Source: an uncultured Actinomycetota bacterium (GTDB lineage: Bacteria > Actinomycetota > Thermoleophilia > RBG-16-64-13). From it: a stretch of DNA of 64,000 nt. Below, in pieces: positions 38,362-49,016 of this stretch. Within the stretch, counting starts at the first letter, position 1; the number at the start of each line of letters is the position of its first letter. The notes beneath the pieces are model-generated. The model did no database searches. It saw nothing but the letters and a program-made list of their open reading frames with translations, and was not told the origin of the DNA. The translations under genes were made by a program, and so were the position numbers. Where the stretch lies: positions 75,223-139,222 of the forward strand of contig CAWBOK010000005.1 of assembly GCA_963790415.1 (NCBI GenBank), read 5' to 3'.

Positions 38362-41300
38362 TCACGCGGCCGCCCACCCGCCGGACAGCAGCGCCGCCTG
38401 CTCCAGCACCGTCTCCGTCGCCTTCTCCTGCTTGTCCGGCGGATAGCCATACCGTCGCAGAATCCGCTTCACCAGCACGCGCAGCTGGGCGCGCACGTTC
38501 TCGCGGATAGTCCAATCGATGGTGACGTTGGCGCGCACGGTCCTGACCAGTTCCTGGGCGATGGCCCGCAGCGTCTCGTCGCCGAGCACCTTGACGGCGC
38601 TGTCGTTGGTCCCGAGGGCATCGTAGAAGGCAAGCTCGTCCTCCGACAGGTCAAGCGCCGCCCCCCGTTCGTTCAGCTCCCGCATCTCTCCGGCCAGCCT
38701 GATCAGTTCCTCGATCACCTGGGCGGCTTCGAGAGCCCGGTTCTGATACCGCCGGATCGTCTGCTCCAGCATCTCCGCAAAGGAGCGTGCCATCACGACG
38801 TTCTTCCGACCCCGGGCCTTGATCTCTCCCGCGAGCAGCTTGCGCAAGAGCTCCACAGCCAGGTTCCGCTGGGGCATCCCGCGCACTTCGGCCAGGAACT
38901 CTTCCGAGAGGATGGAGATGTCCGGCTTCGCCAGACCGGCGGCGGCGAAGATGTCGATGACACCCTCCGGCGCCACAGCGCGCGCGATGATCTGCCGGAC
39001 CGCGTGCTCGATGTCCGCCTCCGGCCGGGCATCACCGGGGGCCCGCTTGGCCAGCACCGCCTGAACGGCCTGGAAGAACGCCACGTCGTCGCGGATTCGG
39101 AGAGCCTCAGCGTGTGGAACGGCCAGAGCGAACGCCTGGGACAGCCCGCGCACCGCAAGCACGTACCGATCCTTGCCGTTCTCCTGCGCCAGGATGTGCT
39201 CTTGGGCGGCCGGCAGCAGACCGAGTCGCTCGTGCGGCGCACCGCTTACCCACCGCGATCGGTCGAAGCCGTGGAAGAGACCGCAGCACACTTCGTACTT
39301 CTCGAGCATCAAGGCGACGGCCTCATCCTGGTCCAACGCGGTCCACCCGGTACCGCCGCTCTCGGTGTAGGTGGCGAGCGCCTGCTTCAGCTCCTGCGCC
39401 AGGCCCAGATAGTCCACCACCAGCCCACCGGGCTTGTCACCGAATACCCGGTTCACGCGCGCGATCGCCTGCATCAAGCCGTGCCCGCGCATCGGCTTGT
39501 CGATGTACATCGTGTGCAGGCTCGGGGCGTCGAAGCCGGTGAGCCACATGTCGCGGACGATGACGAGCCTGAACGGGTCCTTCGGATCGCGGAAGCGGTT
39601 GGCCAGCGCCTCGCGCCGCGGCTTGGTGCGGATGTGCCGCTGCCAGTCGGCGGGATCGGAGGCGGCGCCGGTCATCACCACCTTGAGCGTGCCGTGCTCG
39701 TCGTCGGCACCGTCCCAGTCAGGCCGCAGCTCTGACGATCTCGCGGTACAGCTCCACGCAGATGCGCCGGCTCATGCACACGATCATCGCCTTGCCGTCC
39801 ATCGCCTCGAGCCGCTGCTCGAAGTGCTCGACGATGTCCTTGGCGACCAGCTCCAGCCGCTTCTGCGCCCCGACCACGGCCTCGAGCTGCGCCCACTTGG
39901 TCTTGAGCCTCTCCTTGCGCTCGACCTCCTCGCCCTCGGTGGCCTCCTCGAACTCGGGGTCGATGGTCGGCCGCTCGGCTTCGTCGAGGGCGAGCTTGGC
40001 CAGCCGGCTCTCGTAGTAGATCGGCACCGTGGCGCCGTCCTGCACGGCGCGCTGGATGTCGTAGACGCTGATGTAGTCGCCGAACACCGCGCGCGTGTTG
40101 GCGTCCTGCAGCTCGATCGGCGTGCCGGTGAAGCCGATGAACGAGGCGTGCGGCAACGCGTCGCGCATGTGGCGCGCGTAACCGTCGATGAAGTCGTACT
40201 GGCTGCGGTGCGCCTCGTCGGCGATGACCACGATGTTGCGGCGCTCGGAGAGCGTCGGGTATCGGTCGCCCTGGCTCTCGGGGAAGAACTTGTGGATGGT
40301 GGTGAACACCACGCCGCCCGCAGCCACGCCGAGCAGCTCGCGCAGGTGCGCGCGACTCTCCGCCTGGACCGGTGGCTGGCGCAGAAGATCCTGGCAACGC
40401 GAGAAGGTGCCGAAGAGCTGGTCGTCGAGGTCGTTGCGGTCGGTAAGCACGACGACGGTCGGGTTCTCCATCGCCGGCTCGCGGATGATGCGGCCGGCGT
40501 AGAAGGCCATGGTCAGGCTCTTGCCCGAGCCCTGCGTGTGCCAGACCACACCGACGCGCCGGTCGCCGAGCGCGCCGCCCGGTTTGCGGCCGGTGTCGTA
40601 GCGGTCCTGCGCCTCGGCGACGCGATCTGTCCGCGCCAGCTCCGCGGCGCGCAACGTCTCGGCCACCGCCACCTGCACCGCGTGGAACTGGTGGTAGCCG
40701 GCCATCTTCTTGGTGATGCAGCCGCCATCGTCCTCGAACACGATGAAGTCGCGGACCAGGTCGAGGAAGCGCCGCGGTGCGCACAGGCCCTCGATCACCA
40801 CCTGCAGCTCCGGCAGATGCGCGTCGGCCAAGGTCTCGCCCGCGATGGTCCGCCAGGGCTTGAACCACTCACGCCCCGCGGTGAGCGTACCCACGCGCGC
40901 CTCCACCCCGTCGGAGACGAGCGAGCAGCGCGTTCGGCCCGAATAGTGAGGGAATTTCCACCTTGTATGTCTGGAGCTGCTGGAAAGCGCTCCAGATCGT
41001 TGCGTTCTCGTCGGCGGCGTTCTTGAGTTCTATTACGACCAGCGGCAGACCGTTGACAAACAGCACCACGTCCGGCCGCCGCGAGTGCTTGTTCTCGACG
41101 ACGCTGAACTGGTTCACCGCCAGCCAGTCGTTGCCCGCCGGGTCGTCGAAGTCGATCACCCGCGCCTGCGCTCCGCGGATGTTGCCCTCGGCGTCGCGGT
41201 ACTCGACGGTCACGCCGTCGACCAGCAGGCGGTGCAGGGCGCGGTTGCGTGCGATGAGCTCCGCGCCTTCAGGACGCGTCAACTTGCGGAAGGCGTCGTC

Positions 41301-41501
41301 GAGGGCTTCGGCTGGGAGCGCCGGGTTGAGCCGCGCGAGCGCATCGCGCAGGCGCTGCGCCAGGACGACCTGTCCGTAGTCGTCACGCTCGGCCGCGGGC
41401 TCGCCGGGGGCGATGTCGGCGCCGTTCCGGACCTGCCAGCCGGCGCTTTCGAGCCACGCGAGGGCGGCCTGTTCGACGACGGATTCGGTGACGCCGCTCA
41501 C
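38362..41501 (-). CDS. hsdR: Type I restriction subunit R, split by two apparent +1 insertions (about 40921 and 39733)
   Basis: [15 protein letters not shown] nuclease motif, [33 protein letters not shown]; removing one base at each site restores the conserved text. Confidence 0.92.
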
Positions 41502-41746
41502 CCGATCACCTTCCAGTGTCCGCCTTTGGCGGAGCCGACCCGTACAAGCAGGCCTGAATCACGAAGTATCCGAATCGCGCGGTGGATCGCGCTCTCGGAC
41601 TTGTCCATGAGGGCTGCCAGTTGTGACACAGACAGATCTGGCTGGTCCTTGAGGAGCCGCAGGATCTCCGTCGGGGCTTTCCCTAGCGTTTCCCTGGCGT
41701 TTCCCTGGCGTTCCCCCGGCGTCCTCCCTGGCAATGTGAACGTCAT
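41498..41746 (-). CDS. Small winged-HTH protein (82 aa), possibly the remnant of a longer ATP-binding/Fic regulator
   Basis: [54 protein letters not shown]; GAGGGGG RBS; GTGA overlap with hsdR. Confidence 0.7.
41678..41721. repeat. Four tandem 11-bp units TT(T/C)CCC(T/C)(A/G)GCG
   Basis: TTTCCCTAGCG TTTCCCTGGCG TTTCCCTGGCG TTCCCCCGGCG. Confidence 0.85.
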
Positions 41747-42301
41747 GACCACCGCCCCCTCGCGCGACGACACCGTCGGCGAGCAAAGGAAGTCATCGAT
41801 GCGCCGCCTGAACCAAGCCATGCGGCGAGCCGATGGCGTGAGTTGGTACAGTGTCATCGCGACATTGCAACGCGATTGGTGTCGCGAAAGAGGCCACAGC
41901 GACGATTGGCGGCGCACGACGAGGGCACTACAGTATCCTTGGGACTGGGGATTCTCGGTCGGCAATTGGCCTCGGCGGAGTCGTCGGGGTCTTTTGCTTT
42001 TCACGGGAACACCTTGAGACCGCGCCCGGCCCAGTCGCTGTTCCTGTCCGTGCAGCATCTTGCAGCATCTTGCCCGGATCATCGCCATGACCGGTCCTTT
42101 CGCCGGACAGCGAAGAACCCCGGCCCCCGCGCCTGCAGCCGCCGCTCGTTCGGCGTGTGGCCGGGTGAGAGGTCCTCGCGAAGAGTGCGCGGCGCCCAGA
42201 TTCGGAACTGGGTGCCACGCCTGGAGTTGACGCGCTGACCGACACCGGATTCGGCGAAGGTGGTCATGGCCCGTTGTGATAACTCACCCGCCCAGAGTCA
42301 C

Positions 42302-47384: not shown

Positions 47385-47412
47385 ATTATCACATATCGCG
47401 CTAAGTGATAAT
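47385..47412. promoter_or_regulatory. Inverted repeat ATTATCAC-N12-GTGATAAT between hsdM and fic
   Basis: Perfect 8-bp arms at 47385-47392 and 47405-47412 in an AT-rich spacer. Confidence 0.55.
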
Positions 47413-47414
47413 AA

Positions 47415-49016
47415 CTAGCCCCAGAACCCCAACTCCTTTAGGTTGGCGGCGATAGCTGCGTCCAGCCTCGCGCCCTCGGCCTGCTCCTCACGCAGCGTCG
47501 CGGTGAGCCGCCGCATCTTCTCCTCGAACGGTTCGCCGTCGTCCTCCACCGCCTCGGCTCCGACGTAACGGCCGGGCGTGAGCACCTGGCCGTGCTTGCG
47601 GACCTCCTCCAGGGGCGCGCTCTTGCAGAAGCCGGCGATGTCCGCATACTCGCCCGCCTCCTTCTCGCCACGCCAGGCGTGGTAGGTGGCCGCGATGCGG
47701 GCGATATCGTCGTCGGTCAGCTCGCGGTGGGTGCGGTCCACGAGCGGTCCGAGCTTGCGGGCGTCGATGAAAAGCACGTGGCCGCGGCGGTCGCGGAACT
47801 TGCCGTTCTTGCGGTCGCGCGCCAGGAACCACAGGCACGCGGGAATCTGGGTCGAGTAGAAGAGTTGACCGGGCAGCGCGACCATGCAGTCCACCAGGTC
47901 GGCCTCGATCAGGTTGCTGCGGATCACGCCCTCGCCGGACTGGTTGGACGACATCGAGCCGTTGGCGAGCACGAGGCCGGCCACACCCGCCGGCGCCAGG
48001 TGGTGGACGATGTGCTGCACCCAGGCGAAGTTGGCGTTGCCCGCGGGCGGCACGCCGTACGACCAGCGCTTGTCGTCGCGCAGGCGCTCCCCGCCCCAGT
48101 CGGAGATGTTGAAGGGCGGGTTGGCGAGGATGAAGTCGGCCTTGAGGTCGGGGTGGCGGTCGTTGTGGAAGGTGTCACCCTGCGCGATCTGGCCGGAGTC
48201 GATGCCGCGGATGGCGAGGTTCATCCGGGCCAGGCGCCAGGTAGTGTAGTTCGACTCCTGGCCGTAGATCGAGATGTCGGCCTTGGCCGTGCCGCCGTTG
48301 CCTTCCCCTCCGTTTCCGTTCCCAGTAGCGTGTGCGCGGATGAACTCCACCGACTGCACGAACATCCCCGACGACCCGCAGCAGGGGTCGTACACACGGC
48401 CACGGTAGGGCTCGAGCATCTCGACCAGCAGCTTGACCACACAGCGCGGCGTGTAGAACTCACCGCCCTTCTTGCCCTCGGCGCTGGCGAACTGCGAGAG
48501 GAAGTACTCGTAGACGCGGCCGAGCACGTCCTTGGCGCGGCTCGCCTCGTCGCCGACCTTGATGTTGCTGATCATGTCGATCAACTGGCCGAGACGCTGC
48601 TTGTCGAGGGCGGGGCGGGCGTAGTCCTTGGGCAGCACGCCCTTGAGCGCCGGGTTGTCGCGCTCGATGCCGGCCATGGCGTCGTCGACCAGCGGGCCGA
48701 TGGTGCTCTGGCGGGCCTGCGCCTTCAGGTGCGGCCAGCGCGCCTCGGGCGGCACCCAGAAGATGCTCTGGGCGCGGTACTCGTCGGGGTCTTCGGGATC
48801 GGCGCCTTGGGCCTCCTCGGCCAGCAGCGCGGCATGCTTCTCTTCGAAGGCGTCGGAGATGTATTTGAGGAACAGCAGGCCGAGGCAGACGTGCTTGTAT
48901 TCGGCGGCGTCCATGCTCCCGCGCAGGGCGTCAGCCATCTGCCAGAGTTGGGCTTCGTAGCCGACGGTGGCGGCGGTGGCACCAGCGGAGACCGCGTTCT
49001 TCTTCGCTTTGGGCAC
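47415..49016 (-). CDS. hsdM: Type I R-M methyltransferase subunit M
   Basis: [29 protein letters not shown] (motif I), NPPF (motif IV). Confidence 0.96.

Follow-up and report, generated by a model that had tools for sequence, protein, structure and literature searches.

We analysed a 64,000-nucleotide stretch of DNA (hereafter the window) from an uncultured Actinomycetota bacterium (Thermoleophilia; RBG-16-64-13), taken from contig CAWBOK010000005.1 of assembly GCA_963790415.1 (positions 75,223–139,222, forward strand). Window positions 38362–49016 encode a Type I restriction-modification (R-M) operon that encloses three modules of toxin type. Read along the minus strand, on which all of its genes lie, the operon consists of hsdM, a Fic gene, a HEPN gene, a gene in which a minimal nucleotidyltransferase (MNT) is fused to hsdS (MNT::hsdS), an ABC-type ATPase gene, a DUF4276 gene, a small winged helix-turn-helix (wHTH) gene, and hsdR. 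Protein families were assigned with Pfam and PADLOC, which accounted for all ten reading frames of the operon, and NCBIfam equivalog cut-offs and a PDB sequence search were used as additional evidence. Four-base overlaps join HEPN to MNT::hsdS (GTGA), the ATPase gene to DUF4276 (ATGA), and wHTH to hsdR (GTGA). An earlier reading of the sequence alone (the sequence-only reading) had proposed this co-oriented, overlapping block, and each gene was recovered where that reading had placed it; its claim of three toxin-type modules within the R-M operon was likewise backed by Pfam and PADLOC. Judged from these assignments, each insert is of a known kind: a SoFic-type AMPylase, an HI0074-type HEPN protein with an MntA-type adenylyltransferase, and a HEC-01 pair. 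About 125 related loci were assembled for comparison.

The hsdM gene (47415–49016; 533 aa) was intact and encodes a Type I N6-adenine methyltransferase subunit, with matches to N6_Mtase (4e-105), HsdM_N (1.5e-27), and PADLOC MTase_I (4e-218), the catalytic motif NPPF (LANPPFN in the translation), and 55–80% identity to the HsdM proteins of related loci. The HEPN protein (45722–46138; 138 aa) belongs to the HI0074/NTase_sub_bind family (NTase_sub_bind, 3e-31) and scored above the NCBIfam cut-off for HI0074 (TIGR01987; 81.4 vs. 55.8 bits), its nearest solved relative being the HEPN toxin of Legionella pneumophila (PDB 8XDJ, 9e-21). The gene that overlaps it is a single frame of 522 aa (44157–45725) with Polbeta and Specificity_I matches. 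The first part of this frame (45411–45725) is an MntA-type MNT domain (Polbeta 1.6e-15 and NTP_transf_2 8e-9, aa 12–102), which carries the catalytic motif GS...DVD (GSRAMGT...SDVDI) and fell below the NCBIfam cut-off for MntA_antitoxin (48.2 vs. 60 bits). The second part (44157–45410) is an HsdS with two target-recognition domains (PADLOC Specificity_I 7e-86, aa 110–516; Pfam Methylase_S), and neither a stop codon nor an in-frame start codon lies ahead of it at the junction. Third-position G+C was 0.92 in hsdM and 0.84–0.94 in the pieces of hsdR, and 0.75–0.79 in the Fic, HEPN, MNT::hsdS, ATPase, and DUF4276 genes; the lower values of the inner genes would fit a different or more recent origin.

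The joining of MNT to HsdS is both real and recurrent. A protein search with the MNT part only returned 570 proteins of HsdS length, and among the matches listed nearly all combined Polbeta with Methylase_S. A HEPN scan of reference genomes yielded 39 loci (Gemmatimonadota, Deltaproteobacteria, Planctomycetota, Dehalococcoidia, Bryobacterales, and others), and these were combined with other gene contexts into a census of 40 loci. The order hsdM-HEPN-MNT::hsdS with a fused MNT was present in 24 of the 40, with hsdM abutting HEPN in 20 of those; the remaining 16 loci had a free MNT of 100–220 aa, mostly without hsd genes, and in about 10 loci HEPN and MNT stood as a free two-gene unit with no hsd genes. 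On this census, the unit hsdM-HEPN-MNT(::)hsdS, with its genes overlapping or abutting, is conserved across phyla. This is the part of the layout that stood when the gene-order comparison suggested by the sequence-only reading was extended to other genomes, where the remaining modules varied. An indel artefact in the G-rich linker was considered and rejected as a general explanation of the fusion, because a separate HsdS would have no in-frame start and because the fused form recurs in those 24 loci, which come from many assemblies, and in the 570 proteins. The fusion is the sole built-in physical tie of the modules to the R-M core and the most novel part of the locus. It is the one feature that could couple an RNase toxin physically to restriction, and it appears unstudied; our literature search found no paper describing an MNT::HsdS fusion.

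The pair otherwise resembles known toxin-antitoxin (TA) systems. Type VII HepT/MntA of Shewanella, the Legionella HEPN-MNT pair (8XDJ), and HI0073/HI0074 share with the window a pair of overlapping genes, one for a HEPN of the HI0074 family that has an RX4-x-Y loop and the other for a minimal nucleotidyltransferase that carries GS...DxD. They differ in that their nucleotidyltransferase is a free protein of ~100 aa, whereas here it is the N-terminal domain of HsdS, and in that the window has HEPN ahead of MNT and an Arg in place of the loop His. The window loop reads KRNLLTRTY, an incomplete RX4HXY in which the Arg and Tyr are kept and the His is changed (H102R; codon CGC, 45833–45835). The His was found in 35 of 35 relatives with a recognisable pattern (KRN/T-LL-S/T-H-x-Y) and in the two closest alleles, making H102R private to the window. 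The Legionella toxin retained RNase activity and toxicity as R98A and as H103A, and its active site is a Mg site at Q44/E47 (PMC11586414), positions at which the window HEPN and its clade have Lys and Glu. By this analogy the effect of H102R is uncertain, and an interpretation of the window HEPN as a dead toxin was withdrawn since the nearest solved homologue remains active when it carries H103A. In a Longimicrobiales genome (L045:8192–10282), the hsd-embedded HEPN gene is split by a DDE_Tnp_1_4 transposase gene and hsdR is intact.

Such a tight unit, with overlapping or abutting genes across phyla, could point to addiction, in which HEPN and MNT::HsdS would form a TA lock that stabilises hsdM-hsdS, loss of the fusion gene would take away the adenylyltransferase and so free the RNase, and the other modules would be passengers profiting from a locus made stable. 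The free HEPN-MNT pairs of about 10 loci are as expected of a captured TA pair, and the locus lies among other TA cassettes (hicBA, vapBC) near an integron array. However, the window HEPN is changed at its conserved His and the L045 HEPN gene holds an insertion sequence, which suggests that the lock is dispensable in some hosts, and fused and separate forms of MNT occur within one lineage. We consider an addiction lock rather unlikely as an account of the whole locus.

The slot between hsdS and hsdR holds a two-gene pair matching HEC-01, a candidate system defined from genes nested in Hma operons (10.1101/2024.01.29.577857). The first gene (42913–44145; 410 aa) encodes an ABC-type ATPase (PADLOC HEC-01A, PDLC04182, 2.7e-162; AAA_21 5e-31; AAA_15), whose Walker motif and TTHSP are identical to those of relatives, indicating intact motifs. 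The second (42302–42916; 204 aa) encodes a DUF4276 protein, a putative nuclease of the Toprim type (Pfam DUF4276 1e-29; PADLOC HEC-01B, PDLC04202, 6.6e-82), which keeps the acidic motif VDRDDDD together with the conserved Glu of LVEE. The DUF4276 protein had no match among the NCBIfam models or the PDB sequences. Its AlphaFold2 model was of low confidence (pLDDT 58) with a beta-alpha-beta topology, and the top Foldseek match in the PDB was the Toprim region of OLD (6NK8; E 3e-3, TM 0.41); DUF4276 has been placed in the Toprim superfamily (PMC12065111).

A metagenome scan recovered 80 loci with an ATPase 72–90% identical to that of the window. DUF4276 adjoined the ATPase in 75 of them, and the other five, mostly at contig ends, had no detected DUF4276. 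Well-flanked loci, those with 2.5 kb or more to either side, numbered 26; of these, 11 were nested between hsdS and hsdR, and 10 had no hsd gene on either side, their adjacent open reading frames being ordinary metabolic genes where they could be annotated. A more distant HEC-01 copy was found beside AbiE genes and a large helicase in a genome of the same bacterial family. The ATPase was more conserved than the surrounding hsd genes, as expected of a cassette moving between hosts. That this clade occurs frequently both in the hsdS-hsdR slot and free-standing speaks for an autonomous pair and for a recombination hotspot, which the hsdS-hsdR junction is likely to be (PMC12255303); the pair is thus an autonomous unit that strongly prefers that junction. 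At L069:826–4739, the hsdR 5' end is partly duplicated around a HEC-01 pair, with an incomplete copy upstream and a second hsdR start downstream, and this duplication may be a footprint of HEC-01 insertion at the junction.

In EcoprrI, the anticodon nuclease PrrC is encoded between hsdS and hsdR and is unleashed when Stp of phage T4 hits the R-M enzyme. The sequence-only reading compared the window with PrrC and PARIS and proposed a guard model, in which the intact R-M complex would hold one or more embedded effectors inactive until a phage anti-restriction protein frees them (PrrC/EcoprrI, PARIS/Ocr-like). The comparison is reasonable as an analogy. HEC-01 sits in the PrrC position, as it does in 11 of 26 close relatives, so that an ABC-type ATPase gene occupies the slot and a HEPN RNase is encoded within the same operon, and PARIS (the ABC ATPase AriA and the DUF4435 Toprim protein AriB; PMC11464382) is likewise a two-gene pair of an OLD-like family with an ABC ATPase alongside a Toprim effector. 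HsdS includes the MNT antitoxin domain in 24 of 40 loci and across hundreds of proteins, an arrangement that would tie the control of HEPN physically to the R-M core, and layered defence by R-M, HEPN, and Fic/DOC was proposed in 2013 (PMC3710099).

Membership in either system, on the other hand, fails on the defining features. PrrC joins an ATPase and a HEPN nuclease in one protein, whereas the window ATPase had only AAA_21, AAA_15, and SMC_N matches over its 410 aa, with none of the HEPN domain that marks PrrC/RloC, and is paired with a Toprim protein; the window HEPN is a separate small protein under putative adenylyltransferase control. The AriA models gave secondary matches to the window ATPase that were far under HEC-01A (2e-30 vs. 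3e-162), and its partner is DUF4276 where PARIS has DUF4435, with no PADLOC match to AriB at E ≤ 0.01. As a point of resemblance to PARIS, DUF4276 is among the domains annotating a tree of AAA15/21 ATPase defence proteins (PMC11464382). The accessory genes, moreover, vary even among alleles that are 92–97% identical, Fic occupies different slots in different loci, and 10 of the well-flanked loci have a free-standing HEC-01 from this clade. Where hsdR is frame-broken, HEPN still has its His, suggesting that loss of HsdR alone is tolerated. We regard a guard of this kind as unlikely overall, and for Fic and HEC-01 in particular it is disfavoured because of their variability and autonomy.

A narrower form of coupling can be proposed for the fusion. 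The Legionella MNT partner AMPylates its HEPN toxin (PMC11586414), and an MNT held within an HsdM2-HsdS core would silence the HEPN RNase only there; if the core was sequestered, displaced, or destroyed, re-AMPylation would stop and the RNase would be freed. We offer this as a speculative idea with a modest chance of being correct. If true, RNase release could be triggered by DNA-mimic anti-restriction proteins, proteolysis, or gene loss, and a PrrC-like guard logic would have been reached via gene fusion, with the swappable cargo as further layers.

The ATPase-Toprim pair could instead act as an alternative nuclease effector, distinguishing self from non-self by the HsdM/HsdS methylation mark in the manner of MAD3-MAD4 in the methylation-associated defence system (MADS). 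MAD3 and MAD4 assemble into a 2:2 complex that has ATPase activity and cleaves DNA (PMC13662399) and are required for MADS defence (PMC13662399; 10.1101/2023.03.30.534895), and the two loci have in common an ABC ATPase and a DUF4276-type Toprim nuclease beside an HsdM-like methyltransferase and an HsdS-like subunit. MAD3 was the best named NCBIfam match of the window ATPase, and PADLOC gave secondary matches to mad2 (hsdM), mad3 (ATPase), mad5 (hsdS), and mad1 (wHTH; weak, 0.0024). The NCBIfam evidence nevertheless stayed below equivalog level (115 bits vs. a cut-off of 420 for MAD3, and nothing for DUF4276), none of the ten operon frames matched MAD6-8, a set that the detection model as published makes mandatory, and the window has a canonical hsdR. 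The pair also occurs free-standing with no methyltransferase nearby, and we consider a MADS-like role highly improbable.

The third module, the Fic gene (46167–47342; 391 aa), encodes a SoFic-type AMPylase with a C-terminal wHTH (Pfam Fic_N, Fic, and HTH). Its PADLOC SoFic match spans positions 6–359 of a 361-position model (7e-119), and solved SoFic proteins were matched at about 1e-34 among the PDB chains. The protein keeps the catalytic motif HPFLDGNGRVGR and the inhibitory SxxxEG. It shares with SoFic of Shewanella oneidensis, a single-gene defence system in PADLOC, the Fic_N + Fic + wHTH layout, HPFxDGNGRxGR, and an inhibitory Glu motif (PMC12249575; 10.64898/2026.07.09.737422). It differs from SoFic in its identity to the solved proteins (in the range of 30%), in an NCBIfam ProtAdlyltaseSoFic score below equivalog level (147.8 bits vs. 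a cut-off of 550), and in having no AS1-like small gene downstream, where just 28 bases separate it from HEPN. Among the loci compared, a Fic gene between hsdM and HEPN was found only in the window and in one close allele, L052, at 94% nucleotide identity.

That allele is one of three metagenome contigs of the same lineage (L051–L053), found via the wHTH protein, which are 92–97% identical to the window at the nucleotide level and share its downstream genes hicB, hicA, GNAT, and ASCH. In all three, MNT and HsdS are separate, overlapping genes, so that fused and separate forms coexist in one lineage. L051 carries HEPN, a 106-aa MNT overlapping a 430-aa HsdS, the leader and wHTH described below, and an intact HsdR of 1046 aa, without HEC-01, and L052 adds a DUF1016 gene to the Fic gene. 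Relative to its nearest alleles, the window has HEC-01, lacks DUF1016, and carries another HsdS recognition-domain allele that brings the fusion; the recognition domains differ, and just the central conserved region could be aligned (91%).

The same variability was seen more widely. The gap between hsdS and hsdR was empty (12–21 bases) in seven related loci and held HEC-01 in two and an AAA_13 ATPase in two. In the rest, it contained a DUF3644 HEPN, RhuM and/or Fic, DUF1828/1829, a TIR protein with an 8xMP membrane protein, DUF3800, or unidentified genes, and the slot used by Fic likewise differs between loci. This supports the view that Fic and HEC-01 are swappable cargo which relatives gain, lose, and move. 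The sequence-only reading had said that random variation of the accessory genes among homologous hsd loci, with no gain in protection, would speak against it; the accessory genes do vary among homologous loci, which bears out one half of that statement. The allelic series (Fic, DUF1016, and HEC-01 present or absent; MNT fused or separate) amounts to a natural experiment on whether nested genes cooperate with R-M or just travel with it.

Taken together, we consider it likely that the locus is a Type I R-M operon with two insertion points, at which it has picked up independent modules, defensive or toxic and all of known kinds. Its conserved layer would comprise hsdM, the HI0074-type HEPN RNase toxin, and the MntA-type adenylyltransferase, translationally coupled or fused to HsdS, and a cargo layer would comprise the SoFic-type AMPylase between hsdM and HEPN and HEC-01 between hsdS and a unit of leader, wHTH, and hsdR. 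In operation, HsdM2-HsdS would methylate host DNA and, with HsdR, would cut unmodified DNA. The MNT domain would silence HEPN by AMPylating the Tyr of the RX4HXY loop, SoFic, once activated, would arrest translation by AMPylation, and the ATPase-Toprim complex would cut nucleic acid when triggered. Each layer would have its own trigger, with transcription, regulation, and horizontal transfer in common but not the sensing mechanism. An R-M operon acting as a landing pad would fit the published picture of embedded defence genes, and a fixed, co-evolved guard machine is not supported.

Several observations weigh against the landing-pad interpretation. The recurrence of the MNT::HsdS fusion argues that the HEPN/MNT module is more than a passenger. 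The 11 of 26 well-flanked HEC-01 loci in the hsdS-hsdR slot are an enrichment that could mean a functional tie, besides a recombination hotspot. Locus L081 has the same module set as the window (HEPN/MNT, HEC-01, and Fic), with Fic in another slot, and this recurrence may indicate that the combination is favoured. HEC-01 gave no phage protection in the sole published assay (10.1101/2024.01.29.577857), and indel errors in the assembly leave the states of hsdR and HEPN in this copy uncertain.

The sequence-only reading did not recognise the architecture as a described one, but the underlying idea is not new: beyond the layered proposal of 2013, a catalogue published under the term "guilt by embedding" (Payne et al. 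2024, 10.1101/2024.01.29.577857) lists defence genes nested within operons of Type I R-M, BREX, DISARM, and Hma, with HEC-01 among them. The window shares with that set a HEC-01A/B pair nested in a multi-gene, methylation-based defence operon and nested content that varies by locus; it differs from HEC-01 as published, which was defined from Hma, in that the pair here belongs to a Type I R-M operon and is accompanied by two other nested modules. Nesting has been shown experimentally for DarTG2 (PMC12255303) and for TgvAB inside Type I R-M (PMC11411939). Like the window, the RptR-RMS-DarTG2 island of enteropathogenic Escherichia coli (PMC12255303) and the TgvAB locus on VPI-2 of Vibrio cholerae (PMC11411939) have a second defence system between hsdS and hsdR and a small DNA-binding regulator belonging to the island. 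The window differs from both in its cargo, in having three nested modules rather than one, and in its regulator, which lies directly before hsdR and not at the operon head. As an operon it is unremarkable, one more case of a phenomenon already described, and the parts worth following are the MNT::HsdS fusion and the natural allelic series. Whether nested genes cooperate or travel has been an open question since PrrC and was reopened by the work on guilt by embedding.

Between DUF4276 and wHTH lies a non-coding leader of ~555 bases (41747–42301). No convincing frame was found in its three sense frames, and it had no Rfam match and no match to the sigma-70 consensus. Positions 42054–41747 align to L051–L053 at 82% with three single-base indels, a conservation below that of the flanking genes. 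The leader is probably a separate promoter or regulatory region of the restriction gene. The wHTH gene that follows (41498–41746; 82 aa; Pfam HTH_5, MarR_2, and HTH_24) has relatives in the same place before hsdR in L051–L053 and in L050, a locus in another genomic context (83–86% identical; 82–127 aa), and was not found in the 44 related loci compared; it would be a putative regulator of hsdR. The idea that it is the C-terminal remnant of a Schlafen/AlbA_2-type gene was rejected, since close alleles share the 82-aa gene and the 300 bases upstream are frameless with single-base indels. Positions 41678–41732, inside the 5' part of the wHTH gene, hold 4.9 copies of a tandem repeat with an 11-base unit (TTTCCCTGGCG on the plus strand). 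The unit is not a multiple of three, so gaining or losing copies would put this gene, which overlaps the start of hsdR, into another frame; L051–L053 have as many copies as the window.

The hsdR gene (38362–41501) is read in three frames, 40869–41501 (HSDR_N), 39719–40906 (SWI2_SNF2/ResIII), and 38362–39681 (T1R_D3-like and T1RH-like_C). These match PADLOC REase_I (PDLC03040) at positions 5–186, 193–571, and 589–1022 of 1029, with collinear domains. As the sequence-only reading had anticipated in calling for a repaired hsdR, the frame is split by two single-base insertions relative to close alleles. The one near 40921 is absent from L050–L053, and the one near 39735 is absent from L050 and L051, the contigs of L052 and L053 ending earlier. 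In the same assembly, the essential gene rpoC changes frame three times (C3:1153424–1157288; frames 2, 0, 2, 0), rpoB is intact, and the integron integrase gene intI has a frame excursion as well. The frame breaks in rpoC and intI indicate indel errors in the assembly, among which two in the 3.1 kb of hsdR would not be unusual; the hsdR insertions may be such errors, and an initial view of hsdR as a true pseudogene was downgraded given the three frame changes of rpoC. In the census, five loci had a frame-broken hsdR, four of which belong to the 19 loci where the gene is complete, and the HEPN His is present in every one of the five.

A copy of the hsd locus in L050 (L050:5229–13603, on a 143-kb contig) is 87–91% identical to the window and split into many small frames, with pieces of Methylase_S, HSDR_N, SWI2_SNF2, and T1RH-like_C and dozens of single-base indels relative to the window; it represents either strong decay or a very error-rich assembly.

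Were the hsdR frameshifts and the HEPN His-to-Arg change both real, this copy would methylate and not restrict. The locus could by extension be a decaying relic that is being disarmed, at most an orphan methyltransferase with leftover cargo. The two hsdR insertions, absent from the four and the two close alleles that could be compared, are consistent with this, as are the private H102R, the fragmented copy in L050, the broken hsdR genes of the census, and a neighbouring hicA that is cut to 38 aa. Against it stand the frame errors in rpoC and intI, by which the hsdR insertions may be artefacts, the RNase activity and toxicity kept by H103A in the closest solved homologue (PMC11586414), and the ~6.6 kb of the other six genes, which are intact with conserved motifs. 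We find a relic improbable, and collection of modules by an R-M operon the better account.

With regard to genomic context, the best named relatives of LeuC, the product of a neighbouring housekeeping gene, come from Thermoleophilia/Gaiellales metagenome-assembled genomes. An integron integrase, which shows the mid-gene frame excursion and exceeds the cut-off of TIGR02249 (318 bits summed), is encoded at C5:147164–148171, ~8 kb past the end of the window. It lies on the same strand as the cassettes. After it come hicBA, in intact form, and a series of attC sites of textbook type (GCCNAAC...GTTNGGC) extending into the window, where sites were located at 59921–60007 and 60481–60568. A covariance model was built from seven clear attC sites of this array and is specific to one subfamily of sites. 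Both ends of the hsd locus were examined with it for cassette boundaries, as the locus in its entirety might be a single integron cassette. After the hsdR stop (38296–38356), a GCCTAAC...GTTCGAC pair scored only 9.5 bits with this model (E 2.8), and no site was found with it upstream of hsdM (49017–49336). A strict motif-plus-folding scan of the window gave nothing on the cassette strand, a looser pattern had ~35 background matches per 100 kb genome-wide, nhmmer linked just a few attC-like sites, and Rfam scans had no relevant match. In L050, a canonical GTTAGGC lies ~50 bases before hsdM (L050:5150–5230), and homology between the window and L050 contexts stops near the locus boundaries.

Further small genes flank the operon. 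Positions 37785–38200 hold hicB and the truncated hicA, and behind them lies a site resembling attC (18 bits, E 0.01); this hicBA is a paralogue of the intact cassette beside the integrase, and L051 has a full-length HicA of 70 aa in its place. Just upstream of the hsd locus, a vapC (PIN) gene and an overlapping antitoxin gene of the Phd/YefM type lie at 50456–51135, and two SRPBCC genes are located between this pair and hsdM.

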